From assembly GCA_027040785.1 (NCBI GenBank), contig JALULG010000079.1, positions 1 to 29,383 of the forward strand: 29,383 nt of DNA. The letters run 5' to 3'. The translations under genes and the position numbers were made by a program. The stretch comes from a bacterium (lineage in GTDB: Bacteria > Patescibacteriota > Patescibacteriia > JAACEG01). This document shows positions 2,690 through 11,506 of the stretch, piece by piece. The notes beneath the pieces are model-generated. The model did not search any database. It was not told where the DNA came from and saw only the letters and a program-made list of their open reading frames with translations. Each line of letters opens with the position of its first letter. Positions within the stretch are counted from its first letter, which is position 1.

Positions 2690-3756
2690 TCAAAATCAAA
2701 AAAGCACATTAATAAAAAAAATAAAGAAAACTTCCAAGCACTTGTTTCTTGAGGATTAGAGTAACAAGAAATTGCGGAAACGCGATACTTGTTCAACCCG
2801 AAAGAAAATCAAGCAAGTGGTAAGCAGTGAAGTTCACTTCCTTTCAAATGCTTGTCGAAAGGAGGTGAAACCTCTTCTTATCACAAGAAGATGAGACGTA
2901 CCCTACATAATAAAAAGAGGTTCGCAAATATGAAAAAGGGATTTGCGATAAACTCATAAAATCTTTTTTATTCCTAACCATGGATAAAAAGGATTAAAAT
3001 CCCCAAAATTTAAACAGGACCCGAAAGTAATATCTAATTTGTCCTTGTTTAAATTATAGCATATTTGCAACCCCCTTTCTATTAAGAAGGGGTACTAAAG
3101 TTCTTTTATTCAATAAATCGGGATTGCAACTGGCTTGGCATCACTCCCAAGCTAAGGCATCGGACTTAACCACCCGATGAGCGGAAGTGTAGCTCCTGTT
3201 CCGGAAAAACCGGGGCAAAGCTCGCCAACCTTCCCCAGTCCCTTATAATATTGAGTGATTGTGAGGAAAAATTTGCCTTAAAATAAATTTTTCCTCATTT
3301 CAGTCAATGTTATTGACAATTTCATATTCTAAACACTACACCCAGGAAAGTTTCTTGCAAGGCTTTTCTAAAAGTATTTTTTAGTAGTGTTTAGAATACT
3401 TTTAGCAAAAGTCCTGCAAAAAGCTTTCCTAAAAAGGAAAGCTTTTTGTTCGTTGACAACTGAATAAATCAAAAATATTTTTAATGAAATAGCGCTACTT
3501 GTTATTGGTGGCGTTCGCTCGGATAAAATCGGAGCATTTGAGTTGATGATATTTTTTGATAATGAATTGGTATTTAATATTAATTCTAAAAATACAAATT
3601 AATCTGAAATAATACGCAATTTCGCGTTTTTAGATATTTTCTCCTTTCTAATTGGATTGCCTTGCCCGAGGCGGTTATTCGCCGTTTCAGGGAGGCAATT
3701 CAAAAAAATTTTTTCCCAACCCGGCAGATGATCCGGGAAAGGGGAAAGGAGGAAAC
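2690..3756 (+). ncRNA. Long structured non-coding leader / candidate ncRNA(s) upstream of the Ubl operon
   Basis: No credible ORF over about 1.06 kb; successive hairpins, e.g. 2833-2869, 3120-3242 closed domain, 3245-3313, 3344-3430. No known family recognised. Confidence 0.5.
3422..3450 (+). terminator. Intrinsic terminator overlapping a long alternative hairpin (possible attenuator)
   Basis: AGCTTTCCT-AAAA-AGGAAAGCT followed by TTTTGTT. Confidence 0.6.
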
Positions 3757-5343
3757 ATGAAAAACTATTTCTTAGTCCTCAACGAGGATCAAAAAAATAA
3801 AATCCAGGAAACGGAAGTAGAATTTTGCGACCTGAACATTGACGGCCATGCCGGTGTGGTCGTTGATGAAGAAAATATCAACCCGGCATTACAGGCCATT
3901 GGCATGGTCGTGGTAGCTGAGACGGGAACCACCTTGGAGGGGATTGTCAAAGTTGAACTGCGATCAATTGAAACAGAGATTTTATCTCAATCTGCTGAAT
4001 CACGAGGTAAGGTTGAGGTGGAAAGCTGGAATGGCTATCAAAAAGATGAGTTTAAAAAACTTGTTTCAGACATACTTGTCCCAGTTGTGCAGACAGATAT
4101 TATTTTGTCTGTGCCACATGGAAGCCAAGTAAATCCTGTTTCTGGTGATAAATTTTATATCAGGATTTGGTCTGGGGCTGGAAAAAAAAATGACTTTAAG
4201 GCTCCTCAAAAAATTTGGGGTTATGATGTTGCTTGTCGTGATGCCGGATTCAAACCTACTGGTAAAGGTGTTGCTATCGTGGATATCGAAACCGGATGGG
4301 CGGTTGCCGAGTTGGTAAAGAATAATCTATATATTCACCATGATGCCTGCCACAGTGGCAAAAAATCAGAGGTAGAGATTTTCCGTCTACTTCTTAAGGA
4401 GGTAGTTGTTGAATTAACGCTTTCTCCAGAAGAAAAAGCGGAGCGACAACGGAAGTTGGCGGAGGAGCGCCGGCGGCGTTCGCGGGAGCAGTATATTCAG
4501 GAGTGTTCAAAGCGTCTAAAAAAGACGCTAGAGGGAACGCGGAAAAAAATTGCTGACGGCGAACGCGAGGTTGAGGAGCTCCAGAGGCAACTTGTCCGTC
4601 GAATTCGCGAGCTGGCGGGCGCGCGGCGAAAATTAGAGCAGCTTACATCTTGTCAGAGCGGAGAATTAGAACGGTATGGAAAGGAGTTCGACAAGCTTCT
4701 GGAGGTACCGAAAGTTCGCGACGTGCAGGTTGCATCCGGGGTAATCAAGGTGTTCACGGACACCTTGTATTGTACTGATCCTCGCTCTGGTAGGCTCCAC
4801 GAGATCGGCGCATTTCTTATTGAGATTTATACCGACAATGGCGACATTCGTTGGTATAATCTCACCCGTCAAGTTGATGGGTATGATTGGGGAAAGAGCC
4901 AGGCTCCGCACATCAATGGCAAGGGTAAAGCTTGTTTGGGGACAATGACAGAAATTGTCCCTGAGCTCGTGGCGAATTACGAGTTTGCAGCTTTGACTAT
5001 GGTGGCCATCCAGTTCGTAGAATCGGTTAACACTGATGATGCAGCTGGAAAGTATATTGATAGATGGCCGCTGGCCCCTATTGAACTACAGCCGTCAGAA
5101 ATTCAGGAGGAGCTGAGGCGAGTTGAGAAACTTCGCGGACAAAATCCGTTTCACAACGTAGAGTCTGATCTCAAGTTCGTGCAGATTGCTCGAAAGATGG
5201 AACCCGGATCTCGTATCCGCAATTGTGGTGATTGCTGGTGCTTCACAGGGAGTAATGGCGTAAAGACGTCGCAGCTGGCTAAGCTCCTAGAGGTTAGCGA
5301 GGGGCAGGTTCGGGAAGTTCTGAAAAATTATTTTACGATATAG
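3757..5343 (+). CDS. Coiled-coil plus C-terminal prokaryotic E2 (UBC-like) domain protein, 528 aa
   Basis: True start is probably ATG 3757 after SD AAGGAGG. A long E/R/K/L-rich coiled coil is followed by QAPHINGKGKACLG, which matches the E2 HPN...G.ICL active-site pattern with a catalytic Cys. Operon context with JAB, E1 and Ubl. Confidence 0.75.
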   Translation: MKNYFLVLNEDQKNKIQETEVEFCDLNIDGHAGVVVDEENINPALQAIGMVVVAETGTTLEGIVKVELRSIETEILSQSAESRGKVEVESWNGYQKDEFKKLVSDILVPVVQTDIILSVPHGSQVNPVSGDKFYIRIWSGAGKKNDFKAPQKIWGYDVACRDAGFKPTGKGVAIVDIETGWAVAELVKNNLYIHHDACHSGKKSEVEIFRLLLKEVVVELTLSPEEKAERQRKLAEERRRRSREQYIQECSKRLKKTLEGTRKKIADGEREVEELQRQLVRRIRELAGARRKLEQLTSCQSGELERYGKEFDKLLEVPKVRDVQVASGVIKVFTDTLYCTDPRSGRLHEIGAFLIEIYTDNGDIRWYNLTRQVDGYDWGKSQAPHINGKGKACLGTMTEIVPELVANYEFAALTMVAIQFVESVNTDDAAGKYIDRWPLAPIELQPSEIQEELRRVEKLRGQNPFHNVESDLKFVQIARKMEPGSRIRNCGDCWCFTGSNGVKTSQLAKLLEVSEGQVREVLKNYFTI

Positions 5344-5353
5344 GAGGTTAATA

Positions 5354-6082
5354 ATGTTGAAAAACAGCTGGAGAACTGCGGCAAAAAAATTTTTGCCGCA
5401 CAGTTTCCAAAACAGGGTAGAGTTGACTAATATTCCGAGGATTCTGATCACCCGCCAAGCCTATGAGGATATGTATATCCTCGTAGATGAGGTAAATAAG
5501 GAGGTTGGCTGGATCGGAACAGTAGAACGAGCAGGCAGTGATTTTTTGATAAAGGAAATTTTTCTCCTTGAACAGGAAACACATGTGGCCACCTGCGAAA
5601 TTACGGCTGACGGTTTGGCTGAGTGGGCGCAAGAAATTATGGCTTCCCGTCCTGATGGAATGGAAGTTGTAAATTCATTGCGTTTTTGGGGGCATTCCCA
5701 TGTAAATATGGGAACGAGTCCTTCTGGCCAAGACGAGAGTCAAATGACAGTGTTTGTTGAAAACGGATGTAACTATTTTATCCGCGGCATTTTGAACAAA
5801 CAGGGCCGGATGGAGTTCACGCTGTTTCTGTATGATGTTGGAATAAAGATAAGCGATGTTGAGTGGGAGCTGTATGAACCAGTTGACGAAAGCAGGCGCG
5901 AGCGATGGAAGACGGAGATTGAAGCTAAGGTGAAGGAAAAGTATGTTCCCCCGCCAACTCGCCATGTTGGTTTTGCCCCCTATTATAATAGAAATTGGGA
6001 GGATAATTACGCCGGTATTGTTGGTGGAAATTCTCGCTCCTGTTCTCGCAAGAGCCGAAAAAGGAAAGGAGGGAAGAGATGA
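5354..6082 (+). CDS. JAB/JAMM (MPN+) metallopeptidase, deubiquitinase-like, 242 aa
   Basis: Complete JAMM motif: E (KEVGW) ... H-S-H-x7-S-x2-D (HSHVNMGTSPSGQD); SD AGGAGG upstream. Confidence 0.9.
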   Translation: MLKNSWRTAAKKFLPHSFQNRVELTNIPRILITRQAYEDMYILVDEVNKEVGWIGTVERAGSDFLIKEIFLLEQETHVATCEITADGLAEWAQEIMASRPDGMEVVNSLRFWGHSHVNMGTSPSGQDESQMTVFVENGCNYFIRGILNKQGRMEFTLFLYDVGIKISDVEWELYEPVDESRRERWKTEIEAKVKEKYVPPPTRHVGFAPYYNRNWEDNYAGIVGGNSRSCSRKSRKRKGGKR

Positions 6083-6765
6083 ACAGAGTTGATCCCCTCC
6101 GACATCTTTCAGTATTTTCTCCCAGTAAATTTGGCTCGCGCCGGGTGGACGTTGTTGGTGCAGGCGCTACTGGTTCCCGCGTAGTGCCATCTCTTGCGAA
6201 ACTTGGAATTCAGAATATCCATTGCTGGGATTTTGATGTGGTTGAGGAACATAATGTGGCTAATCAGATTTTTGGAATCGGCGACATCGGAAAGTTGAAA
6301 GTGGAGGCTCTTGCGGAAGTTGTGAAACGCGACACTGGAGCTGAAATTCAAGTTCACGCGGAAAAAGTGGATGGTTCTCAGTCTCTGGGCGAGGTTGTTT
6401 TTTTACTAACGGATACAATGGAATCCCGCAAGCAGATTTGGACCAGGGCGCTTAAGTTCAAGTTGCGCACTCAGTTGGTAGTTGAGACTCGCATGGGCGC
6501 GGATAATGGTAGAGTGTATGCGTTAAATCCCAATAAACCCGGACATATCCGGGAATGGGAAAGGACGTTGTACGATGATGCGGAAGCGGAAATTTCAGCT
6601 TGTGGTGCGAGTGTTAGCGTGGGGCCTACTGCTGAGGTTATTTCAGGTATAGCTGTATGGCAATTAATACGGTGGTTCGCCATTGAGCAAGGAGAGGAAG
6701 ATGACCTTGATAATGAAATAATATTCTCTCTTAGGCCGATGGCGACCATCACCCGGAAATTTTAA
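6079..6765 (+). CDS. ThiF/MoeB-family E1-like adenylyltransferase, 228 aa
   Basis: VVGAGATGS nucleotide-binding loop, DFDVVEEHNVANQ motif, crossover-loop Cys in SACGASVSVGPT; ATGA overlap with the JAB gene. Confidence 0.9.
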   Translation: MNRVDPLRHLSVFSPSKFGSRRVDVVGAGATGSRVVPSLAKLGIQNIHCWDFDVVEEHNVANQIFGIGDIGKLKVEALAEVVKRDTGAEIQVHAEKVDGSQSLGEVVFLLTDTMESRKQIWTRALKFKLRTQLVVETRMGADNGRVYALNPNKPGHIREWERTLYDDAEAEISACGASVSVGPTAEVISGIAVWQLIRWFAIEQGEEDDLDNEIIFSLRPMATITRKF

Positions 6766-6890
6766 TTAACATTTAACCGTCCAACCCTATGACGTTAAAC
6801 TGGGGCTGTAATACTCCGGGGCAGCTCCGGGGCGCTTCGCACAGGCGGTCATTGTGTAAAAAATTCCAAGAACATGAAAGGAGAATGACT

Positions 6891-7100
6891 ATGATTACAG
6901 TAAGAATCGGAAGATTACCAGGACGGATTGAGGAATTGGCGCTTGAGTCTGGGTCTGTTGTAGCTGATGCTCTTGAGGTTTCTGCGCTTGACCCTGAAGG
7001 TTACGAAGTTCGGGTTAACGGCGCACCGACTGACCTAGAAGCGGAACTGACCGACGGTGACACGGTTCTCCTGGTTAAAAAGATCAAGGGCAACTGCTAG
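6891..7100 (+). CDS. Ubiquitin-like (beta-grasp, ThiS/MoaD-like) protein, 69 aa, C-terminus KIKGNC
   Basis: Start ATG 6891 (or 6885) after AAGGAG; VRVNG..........LxDGDTVLLV signature of beta-grasp modifiers; near-terminal Gly. Confidence 0.85.
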   Translation: MITVRIGRLPGRIEELALESGSVVADALEVSALDPEGYEVRVNGAPTDLEAELTDGDTVLLVKKIKGNC

Positions 7101-7860
7101 GCAAGCCCCAGCCAAAAGCCGAAACCATAAAAAGGAGGAGAAAGTGAGAAATAAATTTGTTTTGGCAGGCCGTTTGGGTTGAAGCGGGAAATGGCGGCCT
7201 AAAATAAACATTCCCCGCAGGTTATTTGTTTTATTTACGGAGGCATGGCCCGTAAATATAAACAAGTAACCCAAGCCCCGATATTGGAAGCGGTTAGAGG
7301 AACCGCTTAAACAAAATCCTCACCATGACTTGTCTAGGCAGTTTGGTGGTTCTGTCTAGGCTCGAGCTTGAAGGTAGGCATTGAAGGTCCCGAAGTTAAT
7401 GAGGACTGGCCGAAATCAAGCATCCGTCGTTTTCAATGACGGTAAAGAGCTGTTATATCCGAGTGGCTTCTTTATTGAAGTAGGGGTTTCGGCGCGAGTG
7501 AGCCCTTAACACAAGCGGATAGGTAGCCATACACCGAGACAAGTATGGCAGCTATACGGGTGAGTTAGCGCGACCTGGTATAGCATCTCCTTTGAGGAGA
7601 TACCCTTTAAGGGTGAACTAAAATGAACAGCTCAAAAATTACCCAAGAGAGGCCCGACTGTCTGAATGTGGCGGGCAGGAACGCTAATCTCTTGTATTTA
7701 AATGGCAAAAATCCACATCGTGAGTAGCCTTTGGAAAGAGCGGATGATCTCGGACCAAAAGGTGAAAGCGGGTTGCTTATAGTCAAGGAGTGCTATAAGC
7801 AACTATTTAACCAAACTCCATGGTTTTTTGAAGCGAAAGGTGGTACCTTTCGCTTCTTCT
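7101..7860 (+). ncRNA. Candidate large, highly structured ncRNA
   Basis: No credible ORF; nested long-range stems (7366-7371/7416-7421, 7447-7454/7626-7633, 7456-7461/7516-7521, 7644-7650/7688-7694) and three candidate pseudoknots; ends in a 12-bp hairpin at 7830-7856. Confidence 0.6.
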
Positions 7861-7876
7861 CCGAAACCATGATTTT

Positions 7877-7923
7877 AGATCCTGAAATAATACCGAATTC
7901 TCGGCACAAGATTCAGGATGACA
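7877..7923. repeat. Single nested REP-like unit, locus 3
   Basis: AGATCCTGAAATAATACCGAATTCTCGGCACAAGATTCAGGATGACA matches the nested units at 2191-2243. Confidence 0.85.
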
Positions 7924-7980
7924 TAAATATTAATCGTGGTTTCAGAGGAGGGAAATTTTAAAAAAAATCAACTAAAAAAT

Positions 7981-8135
7981 CTTTGGGCTTTGGTTGCCGG
8001 AAAAATGAAGTTGGCTTTTGGATAACCGCTTTATTTTTTCGGTAACCAAAAGGTTGCCCAAAGTGCCCGAATACGAATTAGATATTTTCAAAGTCTATTT
8101 TTGAAATTTATCTATATTCGTATTCGGGCTTTTTG
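7981..8135 (+). promoter_or_regulatory. Two tandem long imperfect hairpins, the second followed by a T-tract
   Basis: CTTTGGGC/GCCCAAAG (7981-8063); GCCCGAATACGAAT/ATTCGTATTCGGGC (8065-8129) followed by TTTTTGTTTG. Confidence 0.7.
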
Positions 8136-8168
8136 TTTGTCAAAAAATAAAAAAAGGAGGAAAAAGAG

Positions 8169-8549
8169 ATGGCGAAGAAAATTTTGTGGATTAGCCGGCA
8201 TCCAATGCATGGTGTTCAAATGGGCGCTTTGCGGAGGATGTTTGGTGAAGATGTTGTAGTTGAGGAGGACACCCGGCCGTTTGATGGAGCCGAGGCGATT
8301 GTTCGTAGATACCGAAAAGGCGATTATGATGATATTATCGTTGTGGCGCCATATTCGGTTTTAACGCGAATGGTTGATCTTGGCTTGCGGCCACTTTGGT
8401 CAGAGGCGGAAATTGTTCAAGATCCGGAATTAGCGGATTGGCGAGTCAAAAACCGTCTTTATCGTTTCAAACGGTTTCGGCGTGTTCGTCGACTGGTTAT
8501 GGAATTTGATGATCTCGGCCCAGAAGCCGAGAGAAAGGAGGAAGATTAA
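8169..8549 (+). CDS. Hypothetical protein, 126 aa (alpha/beta, WISRH motif)
   Basis: SD AAGGAGG, ATG start, protein-like composition, GC-richer than host. Confidence 0.8.
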   Translation: MAKKILWISRHPMHGVQMGALRRMFGEDVVVEEDTRPFDGAEAIVRRYRKGDYDDIIVVAPYSVLTRMVDLGLRPLWSEAEIVQDPELADWRVKNRLYRFKRFRRVRRLVMEFDDLGPEAERKEED

Positions 8550-8794
8550 TGGGAAGAAAAAAGATTGAATTGGAGAGCTTGATGTTTAGCCAGCCAGCCA
8601 GTGCGGCTATCACAGAGTTTATTCTCAATCTGGAAATCTTTTCCCAAATGACCGGCTCAGGAGATGTGGAAGCTTGGGGAGAGGTTAAAGACAACGGCGA
8701 TTTAGTTGTTAAAGCCGTTGTTAAAACCGCTTCCGGAGGGAAGATTAAAGGAGGTTTAGAAATCCCTTCGGAACACTGGGATTATGCCCAGTAA
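8549..8794 (+). CDS. Hypothetical protein, 81 aa
   Basis: SD AAAGGAGG, TAATG stop/start overlap with the previous gene. Confidence 0.75.
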   Translation: MGRKKIELESLMFSQPASAAITEFILNLEIFSQMTGSGDVEAWGEVKDNGDLVVKAVVKTASGGKIKGGLEIPSEHWDYAQ

Positions 8795-8811
8795 AATTTG
8801 GCAAACAAAAC

Positions 8812-8845
8812 GGGGGGGGCAAGTGTAAAACTATCTTGCCCCCTA
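8812..8845. terminator. Hairpin between convergent genes
   Basis: GGGGCAAG-TGTAAAACTAT-CTTGCCCC. Confidence 0.5.
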
Positions 8846-8860
8846 CGTTCTTTGAAAAAA

Positions 8861-10123
8861 TCAAATACTACTCACAAACCAAATCGGTCGGAATTTGACG
8901 GAGCAGTTTTGGTATTGCTCGTCTTTAACAATTGACCAATTGAGAACATAAGCTTCTTTTGGTTTATAGTTGCGAATAAAAGATTTTAATCCGGAAGGAA
9001 TGGTAGTTTGGTTTCCACCTTTGACTTCGATGGGAATCAATTGATTTTCTCGCTTGAGAATGATGTCTACTTCTTGACCTTGACGAGTACGCCAATAATA
9101 GACTTGTCCCCAGACACTCAAATTTTTCAACAGTTCCGTTACCACAAAGTTTTCCGCCAGCGCGCCGAAGTCGGTTGTCTTCGGCAACACCGAAAAATTA
9201 TCCAAGAGATAATTTCTCAATCCGCAGTCAATCAGATAAACTTTGGGGTTGCGAGTTAATTCTTTGATTTTGTTGGTGGAAAAAGGATGGAGCAAGTGAA
9301 GGATAAATGTATTTTGCAGAAGTTCCAAGCGATTTTCCAAAGCAACCCGATTAAGTTCGGAATTGACGGAGAGTTTTTGTTTCTCCAGCAAATTTCCGAT
9401 AAGAGAAGATAAAAGCGCCAGCAATTTCTTAACTTGCAAAGAATTGGCTTTGTAGTTCCAGATTTTAATGTCGCGAGTTAAATAAGAGTTTACCAATTCT
9501 TTCAAAGTTGATATTTTTTCTTCCGTACCGTTCAGATTGTTGACTTCCGGATAACCGCCGAAAGTGAGAAAGGAAACGAGTTTTTGATTAACGGATTTAA
9601 TCAGCCCGGTGGGTAATTGGCCGGAGTCTTGCAAAAGGGAAACAAACTGCCTCGTTTTTTCTTCGTTTTCCCAGTTAATGAATTCCTCAAAATCAAGCGG
9701 CCAAATCGGGATAACGATTTTGCGCCCCGCCATTGATTCATCAATATTGAGATACCAAGAAGCCGAGCCGGTAATAATCGGTTTGATATGCGGATAATGA
9801 TCATGAATTACTTTCAGAGTGGAACCAATTTCCGGAGATCTTTGAAATTCGTCAATAAAAAGATAGTATTTTTGAGAGGTATCTTTTAATGGAAGTGTAT
9901 TCAGAGCGTCTCTTTGGGTTTTCCATTGCTCCAGATCATCTGTTTGTTCTAAATCAAACCAAAGAATTTGGTTTTCAGAGATATTTTTTTCGGAAATTAA
10001 TTTCTCTCTAACCATTTTCATTAGAGTGGTTTTGCCAACTTGTCTGGCACCATTGAGAAGAATAATGTGATGAGAATCAATTTCTTGCCAAATTTTTGGA
10101 AATATTTTTCTGTTTTTTAGCAT
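8861..10123 (-). CDS. AAA+ ATPase (AAA_14 + DUF4143-like, C-terminal PD-(D/E)XK-like motif), paralog 1, 420 aa
   Basis: Start probably ATG 10123 (MLKNRKIF); Walker A GARQVGKT, Walker B FIDEFQ, TGSAS, GGYP, EVDII...IEVK. Confidence 0.88.
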   Translation of the reverse strand: MLKNRKIFPKIWQEIDSHHIILLNGARQVGKTTLMKMVREKLISEKNISENQILWFDLEQTDDLEQWKTQRDALNTLPLKDTSQKYYLFIDEFQRSPEIGSTLKVIHDHYPHIKPIITGSASWYLNIDESMAGRKIVIPIWPLDFEEFINWENEEKTRQFVSLLQDSGQLPTGLIKSVNQKLVSFLTFGGYPEVNNLNGTEEKISTLKELVNSYLTRDIKIWNYKANSLQVKKLLALLSSLIGNLLEKQKLSVNSELNRVALENRLELLQNTFILHLLHPFSTNKIKELTRNPKVYLIDCGLRNYLLDNFSVLPKTTDFGALAENFVVTELLKNLSVWGQVYYWRTRQGQEVDIILKRENQLIPIEVKGGNQTTIPSGLKSFIRNYKPKEAYVLNWSIVKDEQYQNCSVKFRPIWFVSSI

Positions 10124-10190
10124 AGTGATTATTTGATAGTTTAAATATAGATATATTTTGTATATTATACATACAAAATACCATAATTTA

Positions 10191-10218
10191 ATTATACAAC
10201 AAAGAAAATATCTGTCAA
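10191..10218 (-). promoter_or_regulatory. Sigma70 promoter for AAA paralog 1
   Basis: Minus-strand TTGACA (10218-10213), 16 bp spacer, TATAAT (10196-10191). Confidence 0.7.
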
Positions 10219-10269
10219 GAATTCCATTTTCTCGCTGATTTTCAAAATCGGCGGGAGATAGAGCTCTTA

Positions 10270-10411
10270 TCGTCTTCGGCGGTCGCAGAAAAACGCAGAA
10301 CAAACGCAGACAGACGCAGATACCGCTGGAGCGGTCGCGGACAGGCGCAGAACTTACGCAGACTGACGCAGAATGGACACAAACAGACGCGAAAGGATAG
10401 TTCTTTAAAAC
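10270..10411 (+). repeat. CGCAGA periodic repeat element, copy 1
   Basis: 10-11 nt units nnnACGC(A/G)GA with ACCGC-nnn-GCGGTCGC hairpins, followed by GTTCTTTAAAA at 10400. Confidence 0.8.
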
Positions 10412-10558
10412 CTCTCAAACGAACCTTAATGAAAAGGAAAATTATTTTCGTTTTTAGCAAGGTTCGTTTGAGGACCAAACATTTAGGGGCTGAGCATCCC
10501 CGGACCAACTGCTCTGCCTGAGGCGAAAGCCGAGGGCAAAATTCCTTAGGAGGAAATT

Positions 10559-11506
10559 ATGTATAATTTCAAACTCTTTGATCCTCGTCCGGTCCCCGCC
10601 GCCATCGCGACTAACGACCAGATTTTCGCCCAGGGCCCCGTCCTGGGTATTGAGGTCACCGTCCCGGTGCTCGCCCAGCGGTGCGAGCTGGGGAACATTG
10701 ACCCCCAACACACCGGAGGGGACACCTCCACTGCCGCCATTGAGGTGGCGCTAGAATGGCCCCTCCCGCCCGAAGGGGCGATGCTCGCCACCGTGCGGGC
10801 GGATCTGGATTCGGTCGGCGCCATGGCGGTCCTCGCCATGCGTGCCGAGGGACAGATTACTATGTTCCTCGAGGATGAAATTCTTGGGGACGAAGAACTG
10901 TCCCTGAGGATCGCGGCGGTTGCGGCCGCCGATAAATCCAAAACCGAGGAATGGCAGGGGCCGCGCCCCTTGCCGACACCTGAGGATCCCTAGGGCGACT
11001 CCCCTGCGGAGAAGCTCCTGGCTGCCATCGCGGCGTGTGTGGCGGACTTTCGTCGTCCTCTATCCGAGAGGGTAGAAGCGATGCGGAAATGGTTACTCAC
11101 CGGCGAAGAGCCAGAGGAGTACCGTGACCGCGTTGAGCGAGAGCGGGCCGAGATGGTGGCCGCCCTTCAAAGTGGCGCCATCAATGTCCGGACAGAGGCG
11201 GATGGGCGGATCGCGGTGGTGGAGTCCACCCACCGTGCCGCCACTGCCGTGGGCTATCACCTGGTCCCGGTAGTAGTCGCCCTGAATCCGGAGTTCAGGT
11301 TTCAGGGCGGGGAGCCCCACCGCAAGTTTACGGTCTGCCAATTCTCGGCAGGCTATGTGGATTTGCGGAAAGCCCTCCAAGAGCTTAACCAGCTCGAGGA
11401 GGGCTGGGGTGGTTCGCCCACCATTGGGGGCTCCCCGCAAGGGGTAAGCTCCCGCCTCTCCACCGATAAGGTGGTGGAGGTGGTAGCCCGCCACCTGCTC
11501 AGCTAG
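10559..11506 (+). pseudogene. GC-rich DHH/DHHA1-like phosphoesterase-type gene split by an in-frame TAG at 10991-10993
   Basis: ORFs 10559-10993 and 11039-11506 share a frame (PEDP*GDSPAEKLL...); SD AGGAGG; motifs NIDPQH, ADLDSVGAMA and C-terminal GWGGSPTIGGSP. The family call is tentative. Confidence 0.6.

Follow-up and report, generated by a model that had tools for sequence, protein, structure and literature searches.

Positions 7101-8168 of the window (the whole 29,383-nt stretch of DNA analysed here) lie between a gene encoding a ubiquitin-like protein (Ubl) and a gene encoding a conserved protein of 126 amino acids (p126), and contain no credible open reading frame (ORF). What does this region encode? 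A preliminary description, made from the sequence alone, had proposed a large ornate non-coding RNA with several pseudoknots, possibly of a new class. To our knowledge, few large (>400 nt), highly structured bacterial RNA classes are known (OLE, GOLLD, ROOL, HEARO and raiA), and each of them led to new biology. Moreover, 0.7 kb of non-coding DNA is costly for ultra-small CPR genomes, so such an RNA would offer a handle on the control or the targets of the Ubl operon.

The Ubl operon and its surroundings

The window is contig C79 of a CPR-like genome (1.04 Mb in 224 contigs) from a hydrothermal-vent metagenome. Its GC content is ~40-50% at ~3500-10500 versus roughly 30% for most of the remaining window. 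Separately, 62-64% GC was observed at 10501-11500, in a genome of roughly 30% GC. The following genes and repeats surround the RNA region, together with an AAA_14/DUF4143 gene:

3652-5343, + strand: putative E2-like protein of 563 aa, named after a motif in the preliminary description
5354-6082, + strand: JAB-like protein (weak PADLOC JAB match, 0.0012)
6079-6765, + strand: E1 (ThiF match, 1.5e-20)
6891-7100, + strand: Ubl of 69 aa with C-terminal KGNC, last gene of the operon (weak matches to Pfam ThiS, 0.007, and TGS)
7877-7927, + strand: hairpin repeat of ~50 nt (ATCCTGAA...TTCAGGAT), outside the RNA, occurring at least 25 times in the 1-Mb genome
7979-8140, + strand: two long palindromic hairpins ahead of p126 (the second at 8062-8135)
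8169-8549, + strand: p126, conserved small alpha/beta protein of 126 aa (66 clusters)
8549-8794, + strand: p81, the gene after p126

Regarding the separate Ubl, E2, JAB and E1 genes of a Bil-type operon, the E1 match is clear, the Ubl and JAB matches are weak, and no E2 match was obtained for the 563-aa protein with Pfam, PADLOC or NCBIfam models. As far as their sequences tell, the E2-like, JAB-like, E1 and Ubl proteins, encoded by four separate genes, appear to match the Bil layout given in PMC11601603. Relatives of the window Ubl (57-66%) were found in three loci anchored on E1 (L010-L012; loci are numbered in this way below), none of which carries the RNA. The RNA starts ~30 nt past the Ubl stop codon. 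No sigma-70-like promoter was predicted between them, so the RNA is possibly present only within the mRNA.

The ~50-nt hairpin repeat, which is REP/MITE-like, has further window copies at 2196-2244, 2390-2439 and 2488-2537 and flanks the GC-rich island. The second palindromic hairpin (8062-8135) is followed by TTTTT directly ahead of the p126 ribosome-binding site, and a similar hairpin with a T-run precedes p126 in L048 (770-845). Long palindromic hairpins were also seen between the RNA and p126 in L040 (1954-2130), and L040-L045 contain repeats of a related 167-nt element.

AF2 modelled p126 confidently (pLDDT 94.8), with a flavodoxin/Rossmann-like fold. Among named clusters, the best shape matches were MJ1673 / TIGR02221 'CRISPR-associated' (CARF-like) ones, at a TM of about 0.6, and the fold searches gave no function-bearing match above this value; the modelled fold may be described as CARF-like. 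The closest shape matches were virus-rich unnamed clusters, with MJ1673/TIGR02221 more distant. p126 recurs beside several kinds of E1/E2/JAB operon and beside bpMoxR+VWA genes (L112).

Constraint, fold and covariation of the RNA

The longest ORFs touching 7101-7870 encode 79, 76 and 59 aa, in line with the earlier statement that the region has no credible ORF. A close homolog was found in an ENA contig (L013), which carries a diverged operon of the window's type encoding proteins 40-53% identical to those of the window. Indels in L013 disrupt every small ORF of 7101-7870 and rule out coding under a small ORF; in addition, the substitutions between the two RNAs (12/19/13 by position mod 3) lack codon periodicity. 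The remaining possibility of this kind is that a coding sequence has decayed or that a GC-rich island folds by chance; the foreign character of the island favours it, but it is very nearly excluded, because the compensatory changes described below exceed all shuffle and slide controls and no frame or codon periodicity is conserved.

From 7134 to 8575, covering the RNA and p126, the window is 88% identical to L013. The identity reaches 94% in the core (7286-7870) and 98% at 7451-7620, against 86.8% for the p126 coding sequence, where third codon positions account for 36 of the 50 substitutions. By these comparisons, the RNA sequence is under tighter constraint than synonymous sites in the adjacent gene. 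Contigs from four metagenome runs were mostly L013-like variants. One contig (run X3) joins 7255 to 7707, a 451-nt skip that is doubtful because only 22 nt support one side; the join may be an artefact or a short-form relative.

The minimum free energy (MFE) of the + strand was -263.7 kcal/mol versus -219.9 +/- 6.3 for dinucleotide shuffles (z -6.9). The - strand (z -5.0, shuffle control) and the L045 homolog (z -4.7) also folded more stably than expected. For comparing architectures, MFE folds of individual homologs proved too noisy. The RNA extends from about 7130-7165 to 7871 on the + strand (~740 nt); its end is placed at 7871 because the repeat at 7877-7927 and the palindromes at 7979-8135 are separate from it. 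Its elements are as follows:

7131-7182, + strand: AGGAGG Shine-Dalgarno-like site and mini-ORF (GTG at 7144, 12 codons; AUGAAAAAUAAA-type start)
7168-7218, + strand: P1 hairpin region (stem 7168-7172/7195-7199; one compensatory stem change)
7221-7270, + strand: P2, a long hairpin whose apical loop GGAGGCAUGGCCC is conserved (both-side changes in stem pairs)
7290-7306, + strand: P3 hairpin with loop UUAGAGGAA
7310-7331, + strand: conserved junction AACAAAAUCCUCACCAUGAC after P3
7332-7361, + strand: P5 hairpin GUCUAGGCAG/CUGUCUAGGC (both-side changes at 7/10 pairs; 88% of cells paired)
7407-7436, + strand: 5' strands of long-range helices predicted with 7731-7757 (window and L013 only, 0 broken)
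7447-7633, + strand: optional middle domain closed by GAGCUGUU/AACAGCUC (98% identity to L013)
7644-7694, + strand: H hairpin with outer helix CAAGAGA/UCUCUUG, inner helix 7658-7664/7672-7678 and conserved GGAACGCUAA
7666-7718, + strand: pseudoknot of loop AUGUGG (7666-7671) with CCACAU (7713-7718), covarying
7720-7770, + strand: K block, GUAGCC..UGGAAAGAGCGGAUGAUCUCGGACC..GUGAAAG
7771-7804, + strand: 13-bp hairpin, variable in the family
7819-7871, + strand: T block, hairpin 7830-7856 and conserved pyrimidine tail UUCUUCUCCG

The Shine-Dalgarno-like site and mini-ORF are kept in L013 (MKNKFIL*) and L050 (MKNKDPPV*); the putative mini-ORF may be translated or may matter as RNA sequence only. 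An H-type pseudoknot between the P1 loop (7184-7193) and 7209-7218 is possible, since this duplex beats shuffles in three of five sequences (the window, L013 and L028) and is weak in L045 and L050. The P2 loop GGAGGCAUGGCCC is conserved across L013, L028, L045 and L115. The middle domain contains a three-way junction (7456-7521) and hairpins at 7526-7549 (loop ACCGAGACAA), 7551-7584, 7585-7601 and 7602-7614. No other module is shared as widely as the T block, which was matched in 7 distinct sequences (HMM E 1e-10 to 1e-17) and is likely to form the RNA's 3' end; a simple terminator scan did not call its hairpin as a terminator.

In the two-sequence consensus fold of the window and L013, 24 pairs differed (two-sided changes in 8, one-sided in 16, 0 broken), and the differences fell in 32 of 422 paired columns versus 100 of 357 unpaired columns. 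Covariation was then counted in MAFFT alignments taken from coordinates alone, with slid pairings and 500 shuffles as controls. In the H/pseudoknot core (5 sequences), 94.5% of cells were paired versus 32-55% in slid pairings, with 14 both-side cells (5.9 expected); in the middle domain (3 sequences), 91.7% were paired versus 32-40%, with 13 both-side cells (4.3 expected); and in the 5' domain (5 sequences), 79.1% were paired versus 38-51%, with 29 both-side cells (11.2 expected). The covariation scores (0.573, 0.439 and 0.455, respectively) compare with shuffled means of 0.377, 0.222 and 0.235 and slid values of 0.015-0.309, and 0 of 500 shuffles attained the score in each of the three domains. 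The stems therefore do better than shuffled controls, and compensatory changes above controls occur across independent sequences, as is generally expected of a structured RNA.

All of the hairpins noted earlier were found (7221-7270, 7290-7306, 7332-7361, 7526-7549, 7771-7804 and 7830-7856), and the one at 7526-7549 shows five two-sided changes and no broken pair in L050. The CAAGAGA/TCTCTTG helix was paired in 94% of cells, with both-side changes at 5 of 7 pairs, and TATCCG/CGGATA was likewise paired in 94%. The GAGCTGTT/AACAGCTC helix had a duplex energy of -13.2 versus -3.8 kcal/mol for shuffles, and L013 retains the pairing (GAGCUGUU/AACAGCUC) via two wobble-compatible changes in an otherwise variable stretch. 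The proposed pseudoknot ATGTGG(7666)/CCACAT(7713) was paired in 100% of cells in five sequences, with both-side changes at 3 of 6 pairs (A-U/G-C and U-A/C-G); in the structure-blind nhmmer alignment, 14 of its cells were unchanged, 4 changed on one side, 6 changed on both and 0 were broken.

Other proposals fared less well. Of the other two loop pairings suggested as pseudoknots, ATTGAA/TTCAAT has no support beyond the close pair of the window and L013, and GGAGT/ACTCC is lost outside that pair (9 broken cells) and was rejected as a family feature. The GCTTGA/TCAAGC closing helix also has no support beyond the close pair and competes with 7407-7418/7745-7757, and the predicted helices between 7407-7436 and 7731-7757, which would close the H/K core, have two near-identical sequences as their basis. 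A GCGA loop does occur at 7494-7497, although L050 does not keep it strictly.

Relatives, modules and gene neighbourhood

The region had no blastn homolog in 40 relatives, 400 phylum genomes or 50,697 phage records, and exact and purine/pyrimidine-degenerate motif scans of IMG/VR and JGI metagenomes gave no match; L050 has a 1-nt deletion inside the motif used for these scans. Homologs were obtained by a search anchored on p126, covering 66 protein clusters and 64 metagenome loci. Sequence-only nhmmer found collinear matches 5' of p126 in L028, L033, L040/L045 and L050, and iteration added L041/L043 and L036/L048. In this p126-anchored search, the RNA was present in at least six further metagenome contigs, always upstream of p126 and on the same strand; about 8-10 distinct copies are known in total, several of them cut by contig ends. 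A covariance model (CM) of the H hairpin (R1) recovered L013, L033, L028 and L045 at E values of 1e-19 to 1e-27 and L009 weakly. Weaker candidates include a 28-bit CM match at L009:359-539 and a weak yet collinear match in L115. Additionally, a K-block-like GTAGC..TTGGATAAGGGCAGATGATCCCGGACC was seen at L011 2916-3031, upstream rather than downstream of a Saccharibacteria Bil-like operon.

The conserved blocks keep the same order: GGAGGCAUGGCCC (P2 loop), AACAAAAUCCUCACCAUGAC, GGGGUUUCGGCG.AGUGA, loop CCGAGACAA, CCGACUGUCUGAAUGUGGCGGGCAGGAACGCUAA and AAAAUCCACAUCGU, then GUAGC..UGGA.AAG.GC.GAUGAUC and finally the 3' hairpin, with CUCUUCUUCCG after it. The K block is common to L013, L033, L028 (twice), L043, L045, L011 and L009. 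Other parts are optional. The middle domain (7447-7633) is present in the window, L013 and L050 and absent from L045 and L028, and the 3' module is duplicated in L028. Short forms of ~270-340 nt occur in L043 and L048; these differ in their 5' part and retain just the K and T blocks. In L009 (Kerfeldbacteria), two modular non-coding copies (30-645 and 1492-2507) flank the E1 gene; they share their ends and differ in their interiors, copy 1 weakly matches the H/K covariance model, and copy 2 contains a tRNA T-arm-like GGTTCGACTCC.

The adjacent upstream gene encodes a Ubl in 5 of the 6 lineages in which that gene is visible. A Ubl or multi-Ubl gene is found in the window, L013, L028, L043 and L048, that of L043 being preceded by E1 in the near-identical L041; in L040, the upstream gene is vWA, not Ubl. 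L013 encodes at 3114-3950 a 278-aa Ubl with three beta-grasp repeats, comparable to the Ubl3 proteins of type II Bil/Bub operons, and a C-terminus of the same kind lies directly ahead of the RNA in L028. Downstream, the distance to p126 varies from 120 to about 1440 nt, with intervening ORFs in L028 and L045 and sometimes repeats, which argues against a simple expression platform. The downstream DNA of L040/L045 and L041/L043 (LysM gene and p126) is near-identical, whereas the upstream cassettes differ: vWA with a compact long RNA in L040/L045, and E1-Ubl with a short RNA in L041/L043. The sequences suggest that cassettes may have been exchanged at this spot.

The linkage is not reciprocal. 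p126 without the RNA was found directly after E1/Ubl genes (L030 and L113) and in phage contigs, and the RNA was absent from the p126-found loci L014-L017, L026, L027 and L030, from the p126 loci in GTDB genomes (7/400) and from six viral contigs carrying p126. L029 is uninformative in this respect, as its contig begins 125 nt 5' of p126. A related E1 occurs in only 1 of the 400 genomes, where the RNA is absent. The RNA itself occurs once in the window's genome.

No known family accounts for the RNA. A search with Rfam 15 gave no match at the gathering threshold in the window; the models include OLE, GOLLD, ROOL, HEARO, RNase P, tmRNA and group I/II introns, to none of which the preliminary description could match the RNA, as well as raiA, riboswitches and T-box. 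At E<=10, only noise was obtained in 7101-7870 (snoRNA, flavivirus and FSE models; 12-19 bits versus thresholds of 40-60), and a low-scoring SNORA20 match (22.7 bits) spans 7769-7877. The RNA regions of eight related loci gave no Rfam match. Several candidates were also considered individually and rejected: no tRNA or tmRNA was found; a HEARO/omega RNA or bridge RNA would adjoin an IscB, TnpB or IS110-type gene, none of which is present; and a group II intron is contradicted by the lack of an intron model match and of any ORF > 79 aa. Full-text literature searches found no description of this RNA or of any RNA linked to Bil/Bub operons. Because it matches no known family, is more constrained than synonymous sites and carries compensatory changes, a new large RNA class is the best reading, which supports the original suggestion; we are highly confident that the window RNA represents a real and new family of structured RNAs.

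Possible roles and comparison with known RNAs

As to what the RNA does, we favour the tentative reading that it is a stable RNA partner working with the Ubl machinery and/or p126, to which we assign a probability of roughly 0.45. The RNA would be transcribed as a 3' extension of the Ubl operon transcript, perhaps with its own promoter in some relatives, would end at the T hairpin and would then stay folded and stable. More than a simple terminator or leader, it could be a ribonucleoprotein scaffold, sensor or regulator that acts jointly with the Ubl machinery, p126 or both. Its invariant loops and junctions would be sites of protein or tertiary contact, and its CCUC-containing tail could occupy Shine-Dalgarno sequences. 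This reading is favoured because constraint is concentrated in loops, junctions and the pseudoknot, because the RNA is modular and larger than known leaders, and because its spacing to p126 is not fixed. The strong, attenuator-like hairpin and T-run ahead of p126, the lack of a predicted promoter ahead of the window RNA, the frequent occurrence of p126 without the RNA, the small number of distinct copies and the lineage with vWA upstream speak against it.

The same attenuator-like hairpin, which in both the window and L048 stands just ahead of the p126 ribosome-binding site, is what the main rival reading, a giant cis-acting leader, would lead one to expect. In that case, the RNA would gate p126 (or E1 in L009), with a ligand, a protein or mini-ORF translation as the signal. 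Its invariable position 5' of p126 on the same strand, the conserved terminal hairpin, the Shine-Dalgarno site and mini-ORF at the 5' end of three members, the anti-SD-like CCUC tail, the L009 copy ahead of E1 and the lack of a predicted promoter ahead of the window RNA all agree with such a role. Nevertheless, we consider a leader less probable than a stable partner: at 450-740 nt and >20 helices, the RNA far exceeds known riboswitches and leaders, its spacing to p126 is very variable with ORFs and repeats between, the entire middle domain is optional, and L048 has a 10/12 promoter-like site at the RNA start, as for a separate gene.

The cassettes that meet near the T block in L040/L045 and L041/L043, sharing downstream DNA and differing upstream, raise another possibility, namely that the RNA belongs to a mobile or cassette element as a guide, a ribozyme or a recombination-site RNA marking the junction of exchange. 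The island of about 45% GC in a genome of roughly 30%, the flanking repeats and the 88% identity of RNA and p126 to L013, compared with 40-53% for the operon proteins, are consistent with it. Since the RNA occurs once in the genome, matches no intron, HEARO or ribozyme model and has no transposase, recombinase, reverse transcriptase, IscB or TnpB beside it, this reading seems decidedly unlikely. No more can be said for a 3' UTR module that stabilises or processes the Ubl operon mRNA and serves only in transcript protection or punctuation. Although the start close behind the Ubl stop codon, the lack of a predicted promoter and the stable hairpin at the end would suit such a module, the invariant loops, the covarying pseudoknot and the 98% identity over 170 nt exceed what a protective hairpin needs, and we hold it to be quite unlikely.

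A stable partner RNA might go further and be an integral working part of the Bil-type system, either as a scaffold or sensor of E1, E2 and Ubl or as an RNA bound or processed by the CARF-like p126. This is doubtful at present; if true, prokaryotic ubiquitin-like conjugation would gain its first known RNA component. In any case, an RNA with no detectable relative among known families, a covarying pseudoknot, a modular build and a repeated tie to Ubl operons is a good target for cryo-EM.

Among known RNAs, OLE (RF01071) is the best analogy for a large RNA followed by a partner gene, and both have many helices. OLE RNA (about 600 nt) functions as a ribonucleoprotein, has conserved loops and junctions and adjoins the gene of a partner protein (PMC9723947, PMC12054373). 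The likeness is one of working mode rather than homology: the RNA is linked to p126 as a gene neighbour, and there is no sequence or structure match to OLE. Moreover, OLE belongs to Bacillota and has oapA and others as neighbours, whereas the window RNA is found in CPR beside p126 and a Ubl operon and comes with an optional domain and short forms.

GOLLD and ROOL, which form RNA-only assemblies (bioRxiv 10.1101/2024.12.08.627333), are likewise large and ornate, with domains that are modular and variable, and are located in DNA that is mobile or foreign. In contrast, the window RNA has no CM match to them and lies neither beside tRNAs nor in a recognisable prophage. The HEARO/IscB omega RNA is also a structured RNA of a few hundred nucleotides linked on the same strand to one protein gene in horizontally moving DNA. 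However, p126 has no nuclease or transposase domain, no CM match was obtained, and the window RNA lies 5' of the gene, with no overlap with the gene's end. Long leaders such as T-box and processive antitermination RNAs of the EAR kind share the strand, the downstream gene, the terminal hairpins and a possible leader peptide and anti-SD tail, but the window RNA is 2-5x larger, has variable spacing and matches none of their models.

Finally, the operon itself is best compared with type II Bil operons, many of which, according to PMC11601603, encode a Ubl with three beta-grasp domains. The word RNA is absent from the main text of PMC11601603, and its accessible passages on Bil/Bub operon components list neither an RNA nor a p126-type gene. 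The window operon resembles the type II operons in its separate Ubl, JAB-like and E1 genes and its large E2-like protein, and L013 in its three-beta-grasp Ubl; measured against those passages, the RNA and p126 would be additions to Bil-type operons.
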